Origin: Escherichia phage HK446
Sequence record: NC_019714.1
Direction: 5' to 3' (one strand)
Length of the DNA stretch: 39,026 bases
Shown: piece by piece, positions 14,490-22,116 of the stretch
How positions within the stretch are numbered: the first letter of the stretch is position 1
How the letters are laid out: the number at the start of each line of letters is the position of its first letter
Notes under the pieces: generated by a model
Told to the model about the DNA's origin: nothing
The model's input: only the letters and a program-made list of their open reading frames with translations
Databases searched by the model: none
Position numbers and translations under genes: made by a program

Positions 14490-17400
14490 ATGGCTACAGA
14501 TAAAGTGTTAAAAGGCCGCAAGGGCGGCAGCTCAAGTTCCCGAACCCCTACCGAACAGCCTGATGATCTGCAATCTGTAGCGAAGGCAAAGATCCTCGTT
14601 GCGCTTGGGGAAGGGGAGTTTGCTGGACAGCTCACCGGGAAGGATATCTACCTGGACGGAACAGCGCTGGAGAATGCTGACGGCTCCCAAAACTTCAGCG
14701 GGGTAACGTGGGAGTTTCGCGCGGGAACGCAGGCGCAAAAATATATTCAGGGTATTCCCGGTACCGAAAACGAGATCAGCGTAGGAACTGAGGTATCAAG
14801 TGCCACAGCCTGGACGCGCACGTTTACCAATACGCAGCTTTCAGCAGTTCGCCTGCGTCTTAAATGGCCCTCGCTTTTCAAACAGGAAGACGACGGCGAT
14901 CTGGTGGGTTACTCGGTCAATTATGCGATTGACCTGCAGACGGACGGCGGCACATGGCAGACGGTACTCAATACCAGCGTGACCGGCAAAACGACGTCTG
15001 GTTATGAGCGCAGCCACCGTATCGATTTACCGCAGGCTGGCAGCACATGGACAATACGTCTGCGTAAGATTACCTCTGACGCCAACAGCGCGAAGATCGG
15101 CGACACGATGATGCTGCAGAGCTTCACCGAGGTGATTGATGCCAAACTGCGCTACCCGAACACCGCGCTGCTCTACGTCGAATTCGACTCAAGCCAGTTC
15201 AACGGCTCTATTCCTCAAATTTCATGCGAACCGCGCGGCCGCGTTATCCGCGTTCCAGATACCTACGACCCTGAAACCCGCACTTATAGCGGTACATGGA
15301 CCGGTGCGTTTAAGTGGGCATGGACGGATAACCCTGCGTGGATTTTTTACGACCTGGTTGTTTCTGACCGGTTTGGCCTCGGGCACCGTTTGACCGCTGC
15401 GAATATTGATAAATGGACTCTTTATCAGGTTGCTCAGTATTGTGATCAGATGGTACCAGACGGCAAAGGGGGCAACGGTACAGAACCACGCTATACCTGC
15501 AACGTGTACATTCAGGACCGGAACGACGCCTACACAGTCCTGCGTGATTTTGCCGCTATCTTCCGTGGCATGACCTACTGGGGCGGGGATCAGATTGTGG
15601 CCCTGGCTGACATGCCGCGCGATGTTGATTACAGCTATACGCGCGCTAACGTTGTTGGCGGTCGCTTCACCTATTCGAGCAGCACCACGAAAAGCCGCTA
15701 CACCACAGCGCTGGTTTCATGGTCAGATCCGGGTAACGCTTATGCCGACGCAATGGAGCCGGTATTTGAGCAGGCGCTGGTGGCGCGATACGGCTTCAAT
15801 CAGCTGGAAATGACAGCCATCGGCTGCACCAGGCAGTCAGAGGCGAACCGAAAGGGGCGCTGGGGTATTCTCACCAACAACAAGGATCGCGTTGTTTCGT
15901 TTGATGTCGGGCTGGACGGAAACATTCCGCAGCCGGGCTACATCATCGCCGTGGCAGACGAGCTGCTTTCCGGAAAGGTTATGGGCGGCCGCATCAGCGC
16001 CGTTAACGGTCGCGTTATCAAACTTGACCGCGTAGCTGATGCAGCACCAGGTGATCGCCTTATTCTCAACCTGCCTTCCGGAGCGTCGCAGAGCAGGACC
16101 ATTCAGGCCGTGAACGGGGAATCAGTCACAGTCACCACGGCATACAGTGAGACGCCACAGGCCGAAGCTGTTTGGGTTGTTGAATCTGACGAGCTTTACG
16201 CGCAGCAGTATCGTGTTGTCAGCGTCTCCGACAACGGTGATGGCACTTTCTCAATCACCGGCGCATGGCACGACCCGGATAAATATGCCCGCATCGATAC
16301 CGGAGCCATCATTGACCAGCGGCCGGTGAGCGTGATCCCGCCTGGTAACCAGTCGCCGCCTGCGAACATCGTGATCAGCTCGTTTTCCGTGGTGCAGCAA
16401 AATATCAGCGTCGAAACGATGCGCGTGAGCTGGGACCAGGCGCAGAACGCTATCGCCTATGAAGCGCAATGGCGCCGCAACGACGGGAACTGGGTTAACG
16501 TGCCGCGCACCTCCACCACGTCATTCGACGTCCCGGGGATTTATGCCGGGCGCTACCTGGTGCGGGTGCGCGCAATCAATGCCGCAGAAATTTCATCCGG
16601 ATGGGGCTATTCAGAAGAGAAAACGCTGACGGGTAAAGTGGGCAATCCACCGAAGCCGGTTGGCTTCATCGCTTCTGAAAATGTGGTTTTCGGCATCGAG
16701 CTGAACTGGGGATTCCCGGCGAATACCGACGACACGCTGAAGACGGAAATTCAGTACAGCCTGACCGGAACCGAGGACGATGCGATGCTGCTGGCCGATG
16801 TGCCTTATCCGCAGCGCAAATATCAGCAGATGGGCCTCAAGGCTGGGCAGATTTTCTGGTACCGCGCTCAGCTGGTGGACCGCAGCGGCAACGAATCAGG
16901 GTACACAGAATGGGTGCGAGGACAGGCCAGCATCGATGTTTCCGACATCACAGATGTGATCCTGGAGGACATGAAAGGCTCCGATACGTTCAAAGACCTG
17001 ATCGAGAACGCTGTGGACAGCAATGAAAAAATTGCTGGCATGGCTGACGAAATCAAAAACCATGCCGACGAACTCGAGCAGCAGGCGAAAGACATCCAGG
17101 AAAACGCTGACGGGCTGGCCCAGGCCGAAGTGAAGATCGACGAGATTTCTGTGTCGATGGATGGCATGACGGGAGGCGTGAAGAACTCGGCAATCGCGAT
17201 TATCCAGAATGGGCTGGCGCAGGTTGTCAGTCGTCGTTCCCAGACCGCGACAAACGCAGGGAACAGCGCCAGCATTGACCGTATCGACACGACCATAGCC
17301 GACACCAGCTCGGCGGTTGCTCGCGCGCTGGTGACGCTGGATGCTTCAGCTGGTGGGAATATCTCCAACTCTACCGATCTCACTGAAACTCTGGCCGATT

Positions 17401-17945
17401 TCACGCAGGCATCGGCGACAAAAATTAACACCCTGACTGTTAAATCTGGCGAAAACAGTGCCGCGATAAATGTCAACGCACAGGCTATCGCAGATGTAAA
17501 CGGTAACCTAAGTGCGATGTACAACATCAAGGTTGGTGTCTCCAGCAATGGACAGTATTACGCCGCGGGGATGGGTATCGGCGTGGAGAATACGCCATCC
17601 GGCATGCAGTCGCAGGTTATCTTCCTGGCTGATCGCTTCGCCGTCACCACGGCGGCCGGAAATAGCGTGGCTTTGCCGTTCGTGATCCAGAACGGGCAGA
17701 CATTCATCCGGGCCAGTTTCATCCAGGACGGCACTATCAGCAACGCAAAGATTGGTAATTTTATCCAGTCGAACAATTATGTTGCTGGTTCTGCTGGCTG
17801 GAAGCTTGATAAAGGGGGGACGTTTGAGAACTACGGTTCGACTGCTGGTGAGGGAGCCATGAAACTGACAAATCAGACGATCAGCGTCAAAGATGGCAGT
17901 AATGTTCTTAGGGTGCAGGTTGGCCGATTAACGGGAGTATTCTGA
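14490..17945 (+). CDS. Host specificity protein J (central tail fiber)
   Basis: 1151-aa ORF with segments recognisably similar to lambda J (e.g. TCNVYIQDRNDAYTVLRDF vs lambda ITCNAYLTTQRKAWDVLSDF). Confidence 0.9.
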   Translation: MATDKVLKGRKGGSSSSRTPTEQPDDLQSVAKAKILVALGEGEFAGQLTGKDIYLDGTALENADGSQNFSGVTWEFRAGTQAQKYIQGIPGTENEISVGTEVSSATAWTRTFTNTQLSAVRLRLKWPSLFKQEDDGDLVGYSVNYAIDLQTDGGTWQTVLNTSVTGKTTSGYERSHRIDLPQAGSTWTIRLRKITSDANSAKIGDTMMLQSFTEVIDAKLRYPNTALLYVEFDSSQFNGSIPQISCEPRGRVIRVPDTYDPETRTYSGTWTGAFKWAWTDNPAWIFYDLVVSDRFGLGHRLTAANIDKWTLYQVAQYCDQMVPDGKGGNGTEPRYTCNVYIQDRNDAYTVLRDFAAIFRGMTYWGGDQIVALADMPRDVDYSYTRANVVGGRFTYSSSTTKSRYTTALVSWSDPGNAYADAMEPVFEQALVARYGFNQLEMTAIGCTRQSEANRKGRWGILTNNKDRVVSFDVGLDGNIPQPGYIIAVADELLSGKVMGGRISAVNGRVIKLDRVADAAPGDRLILNLPSGASQSRTIQAVNGESVTVTTAYSETPQAEAVWVVESDELYAQQYRVVSVSDNGDGTFSITGAWHDPDKYARIDTGAIIDQRPVSVIPPGNQSPPANIVISSFSVVQQNISVETMRVSWDQAQNAIAYEAQWRRNDGNWVNVPRTSTTSFDVPGIYAGRYLVRVRAINAAEISSGWGYSEEKTLTGKVGNPPKPVGFIASENVVFGIELNWGFPANTDDTLKTEIQYSLTGTEDDAMLLADVPYPQRKYQQMGLKAGQIFWYRAQLVDRSGNESGYTEWVRGQASIDVSDITDVILEDMKGSDTFKDLIENAVDSNEKIAGMADEIKNHADELEQQAKDIQENADGLAQAEVKIDEISVSMDGMTGGVKNSAIAIIQNGLAQVVSRRSQTATNAGNSASIDRIDTTIADTSSAVARALVTLDASAGGNISNSTDLTETLADFTQASATKINTLTVKSGENSAAINVNAQAIADVNGNLSAMYNIKVGVSSNGQYYAAGMGIGVENTPSGMQSQVIFLADRFAVTTAAGNSVALPFVIQNGQTFIRASFIQDGTISNAKIGNFIQSNNYVAGSAGWKLDKGGTFENYGSTAGEGAMKLTNQTISVKDGSNVLRVQVGRLTGVF

Positions 17946-17946
17946 A

Positions 17947-18249
17947 ATGGCTTATGGAATACAGACCTGGGATGCTTCAGGAAAACCCAACAACTATGGC
18001 ATCAAACCCGTTTCCGTCGTTGGGCGAATACAGCTGGCTGCCGGGCAAACCTCCGGCAGCTGGTCTTTTACGGTGCCCTCAGGAATGAAAGTTGGTTTTG
18101 TTCTTTCACTTGATGAAGGAGGTAACAGCGTAGGGCGGCGCATTGTCGCGTCAGGGAGCACAATAACCGTAAGCGCTGCATCTTCTGTAGGTCTGGGTAA
18201 TTATCCGGCCTCAAAGTGTGAAGTGGTCGTTTTCATGGAGAAAGCATAA
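17947..18249 (+). CDS. Hypothetical protein downstream of J
   Basis: 100-aa ORF; motif YGIQTWDASGK recurs in the next ORF. Confidence 0.45.
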   Translation: MAYGIQTWDASGKPNNYGIKPVSVVGRIQLAAGQTSGSWSFTVPSGMKVGFVLSLDEGGNSVGRRIVASGSTITVSAASSVGLGNYPASKCEVVVFMEKA

Positions 18250-18887
18250 TGGCCGAATTTGGCGCGATGATATTAATGGACAACGGGAACCCATTTGTAA
18301 CGCCCCAGTCAACGCCTTTTTGTCTTTACGGCAAGTACACTTTCAACTCCTCTGCTAATGGCAGTTCGCAGCAGGTTGCTCAGAATATTGCATTAAATGC
18401 TGACTACCCTGTGATGGTATTTATCAGGACCACAAATACCGCCCAGCCCACGCCAGTAATATCTTACCGGAACGGCGGAAATATATATGTCGCGGGGGTT
18501 AATCCCTATAACCAGAGCTTCACGTTAACCGCATATATTTTTGCCATATTTCCCCAGACGTTACCGAAATGGGGGATGGCCATCTGGGATTCGAGCGGGA
18601 AGCTGGTACTCACTAATGAGTCCCGCGTGCTGTCAGACTTGCAGACAATCGGAACGCCTGGAGCAAACGGCGGGATTAACATTGACCAGACGCTTGATGG
18701 TTCATGGGCAGTGGCTCCATCAAGGCTGGGGCAAGTGAACAGAAACGACGCTTACTCATCTTGTAGGTATTCAGGCACAAGTACAAGAATAAACGCCGGT
18801 ACAGCCGCAAATACACCTGGCGGTGCTGGAGGGGTGATAAATAATGGAATTATCCTGACAGCAATTAAAACAGACGCCTATGATTGA
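18249..18887 (+). CDS. Hypothetical tail-associated protein
   Basis: 212-aa ORF with ATGA-type overlap to the upstream gene; internal WGMAIWDSSGK segment paralogous to the upstream ORF. Confidence 0.45.
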   Translation: MAEFGAMILMDNGNPFVTPQSTPFCLYGKYTFNSSANGSSQQVAQNIALNADYPVMVFIRTTNTAQPTPVISYRNGGNIYVAGVNPYNQSFTLTAYIFAIFPQTLPKWGMAIWDSSGKLVLTNESRVLSDLQTIGTPGANGGINIDQTLDGSWAVAPSRLGQVNRNDAYSSCRYSGTSTRINAGTAANTPGGAGGVINNGIILTAIKTDAYD

Positions 18888-18994
18888 TTGTTTTGAGCGA
18901 TCAATAACAAATAATTTATCTATCTAATCAATTATATCCATCGATTATGTATTGGTATCTTCGAAGCTACTGAATACCTCTGGATACTATCAAA

Positions 18995-19228
18995 ATGAAA
19001 AGGCTAATTATCTGCATAGCGGGCGCTTTAATGCTGTCTGGTTGCGCTGGTGTACTTGAGAAACAGAAACCGATTTGCAGCGGCACGGCATATATGGGTG
19101 GCCATGAGAATACCGTTATGATTTACGCCGTTCGAAAGCAAAACAACCAGACGCAATACCGGGCCGGATATCCCTTTAACTGGCGCTGGGTAAGTGCGAA
19201 CACATTCACAAGCACGACATGTAAATAA
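18995..19228 (+). CDS. Small lipoprotein (possibly Cor-like exclusion lipoprotein)
   Basis: 77-aa ORF with signal peptide and lipobox (LMLSGC); in the position where lambdoid phages often carry cor or lom-type morons. Confidence 0.5.
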   Translation: MKRLIICIAGALMLSGCAGVLEKQKPICSGTAYMGGHENTVMIYAVRKQNNQTQYRAGYPFNWRWVSANTFTSTTCK

Positions 19229-19248
19229 CTCATGATTTTCAATGCAAA

Positions 19249-19270
19249 CCTCGCCTCGGCGGGGTTTTTT
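19249..19270 (+). terminator. Intrinsic terminator after lipoprotein gene
   Basis: CCTCGC-ctcg-GCGGGG stem followed by T6. Confidence 0.6.
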
Positions 19271-19286
19271 ATTGCCTGGAGAAAAT

Positions 19287-20555
19287 ATGCTTTATAACAC
19301 TGGAACCATCGCCATTAACGGAAACAGCGCCACCGGCACGGGCACGAACTGGACGGCAACCGCCAGCCAGGTTCGCGCTGGCCAGACGATTATCGTGATG
19401 TCTAACCCGGTGCAGCTGTTCCAGGTTTCATCCGTGAACAGCGCCACGTCAATGACGGTTACGCCAGCTGCATCACCGGCGCTGAGCGGCCAGAAGTACG
19501 GCATTCTGGTATCAGACAATATCTCGGTTGATGGGCTGGCGCTGGCCATGTCGCAGCTTATCAAGGAGTATGACGAGAATATTGGTGCGTGGGAGACGTT
19601 CGCCACAACCTCAGCCAACCAGAACATTACCGTTACGATCAATGGCACCAGTTTATCAATCCCGGCTCTTGGGAAATTACTGCAGAAGGGGAGCAACGGA
19701 GCTTTGCCGGTTAATCAAGGTGGTACCGGCGCAACGAATGCCGCAGACGCTCGCACAAACCTTGGTCTGGGAAGTGCGGCGACAAAAAACACAGGAGCGT
19801 CCTTCGGCGATGTAATGACAGTGGGGGCTTTTGGGCTGGGAAGCGTTGCGGACGGGTACTACTACGGTGCGCCAACGGGGTTTTACGGCAGCCCTCCGGA
19901 TAACCCAAGCAGTGGCATTGGGGTAGCAACAATAAAGAGCGTTGTGGGTGGATATTCAACAGATTTATCCATGACCCTTGCATCCACAGCCCGCCTTTTT
20001 CTGAGAAATATCGGACCTGGTGGCGGCGGTCTATGGGCAGAATTTTACAGCAACAGAAATACTACAACAGCTGCAGACGGAACCCTGAAAGTGGCATCCC
20101 CCATTGTTAAAATACTTCACGATGGTCGGCATGAAAACAATGATGAATCTTATGGCTGCACAGTTACCAGGCTCGGGGTTGGTGAATATCTCATTGAAGG
20201 ATGTACGGGGCTCAATTCTGATGCAGCCTGGGGTGGTATCGATGGCGGCTTTGACATCCCCAAAGATCGAAACAGGCAACCACTGATATGGCTGGACTAT
20301 GAGATCAACGCTGACGGTTCGGTGCTGGTAAAAACCTATCATCGTACCCATCCTGACGCTCCAGTTTTTGCACGTAACGAGCGGGACGGATACGCCAGTG
20401 GTGACCCGATTGATATTCCTGCCGACCAGTTCGTGTCAGTACGTGTAGAGATGCCACGCGACAGTATCTGGCACCAGAAACAGAAGGAGATGCGGGAAGT
20501 GATGGAGGACGCTGAGCGTGGGCGCCAGCAAAATCAGCAGAATACCCAGTCGTAA
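19287..20555 (+). CDS. Tail fiber protein (putative)
   Basis: Large ORF after J with GGAGA SD at the internal ATG (MLYNTGTIAING...); Gly/Thr-rich repeats typical of fibers; the track ORF opens at 19242. Confidence 0.5.
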   Translation: MLYNTGTIAINGNSATGTGTNWTATASQVRAGQTIIVMSNPVQLFQVSSVNSATSMTVTPAASPALSGQKYGILVSDNISVDGLALAMSQLIKEYDENIGAWETFATTSANQNITVTINGTSLSIPALGKLLQKGSNGALPVNQGGTGATNAADARTNLGLGSAATKNTGASFGDVMTVGAFGLGSVADGYYYGAPTGFYGSPPDNPSSGIGVATIKSVVGGYSTDLSMTLASTARLFLRNIGPGGGGLWAEFYSNRNTTTAADGTLKVASPIVKILHDGRHENNDESYGCTVTRLGVGEYLIEGCTGLNSDAAWGGIDGGFDIPKDRNRQPLIWLDYEINADGSVLVKTYHRTHPDAPVFARNERDGYASGDPIDIPADQFVSVRVEMPRDSIWHQKQKEMREVMEDAERGRQQNQQNTQS

Positions 20556-20955: not shown

Positions 20956-22116
20956 TTACCTAGCATTTAAGTAAACTACGTTCTCCTCTTGTGCCGTATT
21001 TGTGCCATTGCGACTTATAATCGCATCGATTTTGCTCGCGTGCTCGGTGAGATGCCCGGCTGAAAGGTGGGCGTATCTTTGAACCATTTCGAGAGTTTCC
21101 CATCCTCCCATCTCTTTAAGTGCAAGAAGAGAGACTCCAGACTGAACCAGCCAGCTTGCCCAGGTATGCCTCAAGTCATGGAATCGGAAGTTGCTAATGC
21201 CTGCCCGCTTTAACGCTCCCTTCCATGCCTTGTTGCTGTCGGTTCTCATCTTCCTTACCGCTGCTGTTTTTGTTCCGTCGCTTCGGTAGGCAGGTTTGGT
21301 GTGGACAAATACCCATCTCTTATGGAGCCCCTGCTGTTTTCTTAATATCTGGCATGCGGTTTCGTTAAGAGGAACTCCGATCGCATTGCCAGCTTTTGTT
21401 TCATCAGGGTGCATCCATGCCATTTTCTTATCCAGATCGACCTGTGACCACTCAAGGTCTGTAACGTTGGAACGGCGAAGGCCTGTCGTGATTGCAAACA
21501 TGACCACAGGGAAGAAATGAGGAGCAATTTCTGCAAACAGGCGCTTCGATTCCTCCTCTGTAAGCCATCTGATTCGTCCATTCTTAACGCGTGGTGTTGA
21601 TATTTTTGGCGCCCTGTCAAGCCATCCCCATTCAACAGCCATATTGAGAATAGCGCGAAGTATTGCCAGATGCCGCGTCTTCGTTCCTTTGCTTGCCAGC
21701 TTTGGTTTATACTCCGGCACTGGCTTGCCAAGCCGCAAACACCTGTCCCGGCTCATTTCCCAGTTCAGGCGATGGCGGCGGTTTTCCATCCCGTCTACCG
21801 CCTCCATTATTTTTTCTGTTGTTATGTCAGAGAGAATGGTTTCTCTGAAGTGCAACATCCAGAACGATATAATGCTCTTGTCATCATCAATGGACTTCTT
21901 ATCCGATTTCTCACGCAGCCACCGTATGCAGGCTTCCTTGAATAGCTTTTTCGGTGATTCCCCGAGATTTTTTACTCTCCACGCTTCTGCTTTCAGACGA
22001 TCGTGAAGTTCTTGCGCTTGCCTTTTGTCCGATGTTTCAAGAGAGCGTCTAACTCTTGATCCATCTGGCGCGACGAAATCGCAGTGCCACGTGCCACCGC
22101 GTAGTTTGATTGACAT
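20956..22116 (-). CDS. int: Tyrosine integrase (P22-like, thrW-targeting)
   Basis: 386-aa ORF with C-terminal catalytic region (HDLRHTWASW ... RYAHL); adjacent to tRNA-Thr-derived core. Confidence 0.92.
   Translation of the reverse strand: MSIKLRGGTWHCDFVAPDGSRVRRSLETSDKRQAQELHDRLKAEAWRVKNLGESPKKLFKEACIRWLREKSDKKSIDDDKSIISFWMLHFRETILSDITTEKIMEAVDGMENRRHRLNWEMSRDRCLRLGKPVPEYKPKLASKGTKTRHLAILRAILNMAVEWGWLDRAPKISTPRVKNGRIRWLTEEESKRLFAEIAPHFFPVVMFAITTGLRRSNVTDLEWSQVDLDKKMAWMHPDETKAGNAIGVPLNETACQILRKQQGLHKRWVFVHTKPAYRSDGTKTAAVRKMRTDSNKAWKGALKRAGISNFRFHDLRHTWASWLVQSGVSLLALKEMGGWETLEMVQRYAHLSAGHLTEHASKIDAIISRNGTNTAQEENVVYLNAR
20989..21004. repeat. Integrase arm-type site candidate (TTGTGCCGTATTTGTG), copy 2
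   Basis: Second copy of the 16-bp repeat, inside the 3' end of int coding sequence. Confidence 0.45.

Follow-up and report, generated by a model that had tools for sequence, protein, structure and literature searches.

The cor gene of Escherichia phage HK446: an exclusion lipoprotein gene of the HK022/phi80 type, its probable action on FhuA and a possible control element upstream

The open reading frame at positions 18995-19228 of Escherichia phage HK446 (NC_019714.1; the window, i.e., the whole stretch of DNA that was analysed, comprises 39,026 nucleotides) is cor, the lysogenic-conversion and superinfection-exclusion lipoprotein gene of HK022/phi80-type phages, and as such an already known gene; indeed, cor has stood as a textbook example of lysogenic conversion since the 1990s. 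The reading favoured here, to which a probability of roughly 0.8 is assigned, is that HK446 cor is an exclusion gene of the HK022/phi80 type whose product jams FhuA from the periplasm in an Llp-like manner, and that it is expressed from the prophage by way of its own promoter and terminator. The presence of cor indicates the use of FhuA by HK446, and lysogens of this phage should resist T1, T5, phi80 and related phages. As far as the gene itself is concerned, the finding adds nothing new, and its value is that of a correct annotation.

The protein matches the NCBIfam equivalog NF047972 ("phage exclusion lipoprotein Cor") with 138.8 bits against a cutoff of 31 (E 4e-41), residues 1-76 falling on positions 1-76 of the 78 of the profile, and PHROG 1119 ("Cor superinfection exclusion protein") with an E value of 2.4e-37; Pfam holds no family for it and returned sub-threshold noise only. 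These profile comparisons, together with the 100% identity to HK022 Cor, uphold the Cor-class, receptor-blocking character that an earlier sequence-only reading of this DNA had suggested. The comparison with Lom made in the same reading has to be given up, since Lom represents an unrelated outer-membrane beta-barrel family, there is no Pfam match, and a protein of 77 aa is far too small; members of the Lom/Ail family are roughly 170-200 aa long. Membership of the Lom/Ail beta-barrel family was rejected on these grounds, as was a kinship with Lom and Bor, on size and on the absence of any match.

Searches with tblastn found Cor proteins 100% identical to that of HK446 in HK022, HK75, HK106, HK542, HK544, HK633, mEp234, mEp235, mEp506 and mEpX1; identity is 79% with phi80, 64.5% with N15 and 60% with gp32 of ES18, and 30-46% with the Cor proteins of T1-like and Dhillonvirus phages. 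Homologues are present in 235 phage records, virulent phages included, and 114 were recovered out of 5.8 billion proteins searched, those named by their source being Cor. At the nucleotide level, HK446 and mEp234 are 100% identical over 701 bp around cor, a stretch whose annotation in mEp234 reads "Cor protein" and "terminator". At the sensitivity of megablast, the cor cassette (18888-19286) occurs in only 12 of 5,426 complete E. coli genomes; one of the 12 is XL10-Gold, whose cassette is about 80% identical to that of HK446, a value similar to the identity between the phi80 and HK446 proteins. The HK446 allele of cor is common among isolated HK and mEp phages, unlike the situation in complete E. 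coli genomes.

The coding sequence runs from an ATG to a TAA stop codon and specifies a precursor of 77 aa, beginning MKRLIICIAGALMLSGC / MKRLIICIAGALMLSGCAGV. Its signal peptide, MKRLIICIAGALM-LSGC, is composed of a basic n-region (MKR), a hydrophobic core (Kyte-Doolittle 19-residue maximum 2.09) and the lipobox L14-S15-G16-C17; the corresponding region of Cor is annotated in the phi80 record as a signal peptidase II signal peptide. The 77-aa lipoprotein with an LSGC lipobox that had been placed at 18995 before any database search is therefore found as described. Judging from the signal peptide, the protein would be lipidated and, given an Ala at position +2 of the mature form, sorted to the outer membrane. 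In an alignment of 25 Cor homologues, Cys17, Cys76, Y55, G58, P60, F61, W63 and W65 are invariant, and Cys28 is kept in at least 90% of the sequences. The GC content of cor is 47.4%, compared with 50.1% for the genome and 48.5-55.4% for the neighbouring genes; this value is not distinctive, and a foreign origin argued from base composition was dropped.

Table 1. Features of the cor region of HK446 (positions within the window)
Feature	Position	Strand	Basis and remarks
Tail-tip host-specificity gene J with two coupled small genes	14490..18887	+	ORFs; PHROG 557, PHROG 425; phi80 similarity
J	14490-17945	+	ORF
100-aa gene	17947-18249	+	PHROG 557 "outer membrane protein"
212-aa gene	18249-18887	+	PHROG 425 "membrane associated protein"
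Conserved upstream element with two OxyR-like half sites	18887..18932		Phylogenetic footprint, 33 distinct cor upstream sequences
OxyR-like half site 1, ATTGTTTTGAGCGAT	18887-18901		8/10 OxyR consensus positions
OxyR-like half site 2, ATCTATCTAATCAAT	18918-18932		7/10 OxyR consensus positions
Putative extended -10 element, TGGTATCTT	18953..18961	+	Maps onto phi80-annotated -10 and start site
cor CDS, 77-aa prolipoprotein	18995..19228 (stop included)	+	ORF; NF047972, PHROG 1119; 100% aa identity to HK022, mEp234, HK75
Lipoprotein signal peptide, residues 1-16	18995..19042	+	Sequence and hydrophobicity; lipobox LSGC is residues 14-17
Mature Cor, 61 aa (predicted)	19043..19225	+	Starts at the Cys predicted to be lipidated; carries the Cys28/Cys76 pair and the YRAGYPFNWRW motif
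Intrinsic terminator of cor	19246..19273	+	Hairpin stem 19246-19267, then a T tract up to 19273; kept in six further cor loci
Side tail fibre gene (stf)	19287..20555	+	Pfam Phage_tail_C_2 E 1.9e-58; PHROG 1591 E 1.4e-179

As had been noted from the sequence, cor stands between tail genes: J and two small genes precede it and stf follows. The start of stf was set at the ATG behind GGAGA, and a program-made start of this reading frame at 19242, which runs through the cor terminator, was rejected. Over its last 136 aa, J has 99% identity with phi80 J, and the identity between the 212-aa protein and phi80 gp23 is 80%; the order J, 100-aa gene, gene of about 212 aa, cor (and stf) is shared by phi80, HK022, N15, mEp390, Fostie, LAU1 and the Erwinia phage Eho49. 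In HK97, a user of another receptor than FhuA, J leads directly to stf without these genes, and homology with HK446 resumes at about 19286. On this recurring gene order and the FhuA-type end of J, cor is best read as the terminal gene of a conserved receptor-specificity block that travels with FhuA specificity, rather than as a lone insertion. Both phi80 and HK022 use FhuA (PMC10373560, PMC6814406), and PMC6814406 describes fhuA as the HK022 receptor gene; the three-gene cassette and its link to the use of FhuA have been described before, according to the account in PMC13164509, citing Wietzorrek et al. 2006.

The term "moron", by which the gene had been introduced in the sequence-only reading, holds in part. 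Measured against the concept of Juhala et al. 2000 (outlined in PMC3594210), cor has a terminator of its own and lies in DNA absent from the otherwise collinear HK97; it is not free-standing, because the whole block of J end, 100-aa gene, 212-aa gene and cor differs between the two phages. The 100-aa and 212-aa genes are translationally coupled to J, and their products carry neither a signal peptide nor a hydrophobic segment (Kyte-Doolittle maxima 1.27 and 0.82), so that the membrane-related names of PHROG 557 and PHROG 425 look unsupported. Both genes always accompany cor and FhuA-type J proteins.

The genome as a whole is a mosaic of the HK97/HK022-like lambdoid type, the left arm being 98.9% identical to mEp234 and the right arm closest to HK544 and HK97; mosaic genomes are usual for lambdoid phages. 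The integrase gene (20956-22116) is on the minus strand in HK446 and on the plus strand in mEp234, to which the left arm is most closely related; this difference marks a junction of the mosaic immediately after the tail fibre gene.

The terminator hairpin begins 18 nt after the stop codon of cor and consists of a 9-pair stem (5 G-C) closed by the loop CUCG; the hairpin segment folds at -14.0 kcal/mol, and its 61-nt context has a z of -2.5 relative to shuffled sequences. A simple terminator consensus scan of the region returned 3 candidates against 3.0 expected, which is not above chance, so that the evidence for the terminator lies in its position and its conservation. Behind cor, this hairpin recurs in HK022, phi80, mEp390, Fostie, LAU1 and N15, with differing loops and, in N15, with one compensatory change of a C-G to a U-A pair; it is annotated as a terminator in the records of mEp234, phi80, mEp390 and N15. 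The strong terminator that had been proposed to follow the lipoprotein gene is in this way confirmed as a conserved hairpin with a T tract. A search of Rfam with positions 18700-19400 gave sub-threshold matches only, driven by this hairpin.

Two further observations concern the DNA around the terminator. In N15 (1738-1928 of its locus) and in the Erwinia phage Eho49, about 150-190 nt of extra sequence, missing from HK446, HK022 and phi80, separate the cor stop codon from the conserved terminator. On the minus strand, the 5' end of the tail fibre gene contains an antisense reading frame (19295-19549) that has 93% identity to "gene 25" of phi80. In the phi80 record, gene 25 is described as a reverse moron that has a promoter of its own and ends at the cor terminator, which would thus act in both directions; the conservation of the HK446 frame may simply reflect that of stf on the other strand.

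Upstream, cor is preceded by a spacer of 107 nt whose GC content of 29% stands out from cor and its neighbours. The phi80 record (FN582354) annotates a -35 element, an extended -10 element and a transcription start for cor, all of which align onto the HK446 spacer, and it is by homology to this annotation that a cor promoter is inferred in HK446. Transcription would start near 18969, leaving a leader of 26 nt; the -35 element (TATATC, 18933-18938) is poor. An element of the form TGnTAnnnT ends 29-33 nt upstream of the cor ATG in most of the lambdoid-type cor loci surveyed, which comprised phage loci and 31 prophage loci of Enterobacter, Citrobacter, Rahnella, Kluyvera and others. A generic sigma-70 consensus scan missed the extended -10 element and proposed instead a site inside the upstream gene (18855-18884), which was not adopted because the conserved extended -10 matches the phi80 annotation. 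A Fur box in the spacer was likewise dropped, the best match to GATAATGATAATCATTATC reaching about 9/19 in a check by eye.

The orientation of cor is not the same in all phages. In ES18 (1201-1443 of its locus) and in three virulent siphophages, from Tunavirus, Dhillonvirus and Braunvirinae (loci L166, L167 and L168), the gene runs against the tail genes on either side of it; in these phages cor cannot, therefore, belong to the tail-gene operon. The inverted loci of ES18 and of the Tunavirus, Dhillonvirus and Braunvirinae phages have neither the lambdoid-type extended -10 element nor the GATC/OxyR-like element that is described below.

As to the function of the protein, Cor of HK022, N15 and phi80 protects lysogens from FhuA-dependent phages by inactivation of the receptor, with a lowered uptake of ferrichrome, as summarised in PMC3594210 (citing Uc-Mass 2004) and in PMC11436027; the molecular mechanism, according to a 2026 preprint (bioRxiv 10.64898/2026.03.26.714494), is still to be settled experimentally. 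In the complex of Llp with FhuA, a non-native conformation of the plug is bound, and the phage-binding site is covered by the surface loops EL7 and EL8, which fold inward; in that work it is proposed that Cor acts as Llp does (PMC9586334), and an AF3 docking has been published for a T1-like Cor (PMC13164509). T5 Llp (PDB 8a60 chain B, 7qjf) and Cor share a fold, with an identity of 11% in the structural alignment, and Cys28 and Cys76 of Cor (mature residues 12 and 60) parallel the disulfide Cys11-Cys58 of Llp.

From this fold match and from the published work, the 61-aa Cor domain is pictured as a small beta-barrel with a probable Cys28-Cys76 disulfide as its clamp, and this domain would bind the periplasmic face and the plug of FhuA. 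Receptor molecules bound in this way would be locked, their surface loops refusing the receptor-binding proteins of phages, and the lysogen would then resist T1, T5, phi80, HK022 and similar phages, as well as colicin M or albomycin, at a cost in ferrichrome uptake. With a putative promoter and a terminator of its own, cor could be expressed from the repressed prophage; in the lytic cycle, late transcription would be antiterminated and pass through the gene.

Several other explanations of the gene were weighed. That it is a chance small reading frame, or a lipoprotein of some other function such as a virulence factor of the Lom/Bor type, has a negligible probability: the lack of a Pfam family and the readiness with which small lipoprotein signal peptides match many families weakly would leave room for such a view, but Cor-specific profiles are matched over the full length (E 4e-41 and 2e-37), homologues occur in 235 phage records, no Lom or Bor similarity was detected, and the profile matches refute it. 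It is also very improbable that cor is not expressed from the prophage and is a mere late gene, read with the tail operon, whose product stops the adsorption of progeny to the debris of lysed cells. The gene shares its strand with the late operon, the generic scan does not contain the proposed promoter, a GC content near the genome mean does not mark an insert, and virulent phages carry cor as well, protection of the progeny being a role that has been proposed (PMC13164509); these points are opposed by the AT-rich spacer with its conserved extended -10 element ahead of cor and the terminator directly after it, by the promoter and start site annotated in phi80, by the inversion of cor relative to the tail genes in ES18, and by the documented lysogenic conversion by Cor of HK022, phi80 and N15 (PMC3594210, PMC11436027). 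The progeny-protecting late role and expression from the prophage are, in any case, not mutually exclusive.

An alternative that concerns the mode of action rather than the expression is that Cor excludes indirectly, via other outer-membrane proteins (OmpA, OmpC, OmpF and others) or via a general change of the outer membrane, and not by an Llp-like binding to the plug. [quoted passage not shown] 2018, as cited in PMC9311878), and with several outer-membrane partners the action of Cor may not be that of a one-to-one complex with FhuA. Moreover, the link between Cor and Llp is invisible at the sequence level (searches of PDB sequences with the single Cor protein and with a 25-sequence profile had no Llp among the matches at E <= 10, and nothing else relevant) and weak in Foldseek, which on the PDB was not discriminating, Llp standing at rank 48 with an E value of 0.69. 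The common fold, the matching cysteine pair and the receptor inactivation reported for the identical HK022 Cor and its relatives are the evidence on the other side, and the indirect mode is considered unlikely; a direct, Llp-like action on FhuA is retained.

Whether the prophage expresses cor constitutively is a separate matter, on which the spacer upstream of the gene offers a tentative proposal. In 33 distinct cor upstream sequences (including those of the relatives L002, L006, L007, L009 and L011-L039), the 15-mer ATCGnTnnnAnCGAT lies 104-108 nt before the ATG, and a second 15-mer, ATCT(A/G)TnnnAnC(A/T)AT, follows exactly 31 nt downstream of the first. The columns specified in the OxyR consensus ATAGnTnnnAnCTAT average 1.77 bits, compared with 0.89 for its "n" columns and 0.55 for the next 20 nt. 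In HK446 the two OxyR-like half sites, 31 nt apart from start to start, a distance that would suit an OxyR tetramer, abut the poor -35 element and span about -82 to -37 by the proposed start site; the first scores as high as the agn43 site and as OxyR(A) and OxyR(C) of P22 gtr, which have been validated by experiment (PMC2909390). A single match of 8/10 is common by chance (17% of shuffled spacers), and the argument for an OxyR/Dam-type element thus rests on the fixed position and spacing, the column-wise conservation and the GATC pattern.

Three GATC sites accompany the half sites; among the 33 distinct sequences, 30 have kept the first, 32 the second and 30 the third. HK446 and HK022 keep both half sites, with the first GATC changed to GATT and the third to TATC, so that only the GATC at 18899-18902 is left; HK446 thus has a single GATC where several would be looked for inside an OxyR-like site. 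N15 is also without two of the three. Two palindromes in the spacer were considered as RNA hairpins and this reading was set aside: their arms are invariant, not covarying, and outer arm positions lose complementarity in Rahnella and Citrobacter, for which reasons a DNA-binding site fits better.

These data suggest, as a possibility held with clear reserve, that in lambdoid-type prophages cor is under an unreported switch of the epigenetic OxyR/Dam type known from gtr, agn43 and opvAB, instead of being constitutive, that the same cassette drives other cargo genes, and that the HK446 allele would be a locked variant. A paper linking cor to OxyR or Dam was not found in the full-text literature that is searchable without subscription. 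If the proposal is true, FhuA-based exclusion, and with it the price paid in iron uptake, would be subject to phase variation or respond to the redox state, and prophage exclusion by receptor blocking would be bistable, as is O-antigen modification by gtr; alleles such as that of HK446 would show how a switch of this kind gets locked.

The exact three-GATC pattern is present in at least 120 IMG/VR contigs (loci L046-L165), mostly ahead of lipoproteins of the Cor family. In some contigs it stands ahead of other small genes at the same distance, e.g., in L100 (2641-2988, plus strand), L121 (5334-5564, minus strand) and L054 (6880-7182, plus strand); the cargo includes a TonB C-terminal domain that stands alone behind a signal peptide (Pfam TonB_C, 56.7 bits), a 76-aa lipoprotein different from Cor, and further small reading frames, one for a membrane protein and others for cytoplasmic products. 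A secreted domain of the TonB type could in its own right disturb receptors that depend on TonB. On the evidence of these contig sequences, the three-GATC cassette looks like a portable moron promoter.

Among known systems, the closest parallel to the upstream element is found in P22 gtr and E. coli agn43, which share with the upstream regions of cor in phi80 and in most prophages the arrangement GATCG-N7-CGATC, in which one OxyR half site holds two Dam sites at a distance of 13 nt (PMC2909390); the half sites are spaced by 31 nt in cor and by 32 nt in gtr, and they number two in cor as against three in gtr, with three GATCs as against four. Llp, to which Cor is compared in fold and probable action, differs in its setting, as it belongs to the virulent phage T5, where its gene lies beside that of pb5, the receptor-binding protein, and is expressed not from a prophage but early in infection. 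Lambda Lom and Bor resemble Cor in being expressed from the prophage, encoded among or near late genes and located in the envelope; they are unrelated to it in sequence and size, without a profile match, and neither is known to block a phage receptor. With the Cor proteins of HK022, phi80, N15 and mEp167, on the contrary, that of HK446 shares length, lipobox, Cys pair and motif, and with the cor genes of HK022, phi80 and N15 it shares the place after J and two small genes and before stf, the terminator and the FhuA-type tail tip. In comparison with these known Cor systems nothing of substance is different in HK446, and only the genome mosaic in which the gene is embedded is new.
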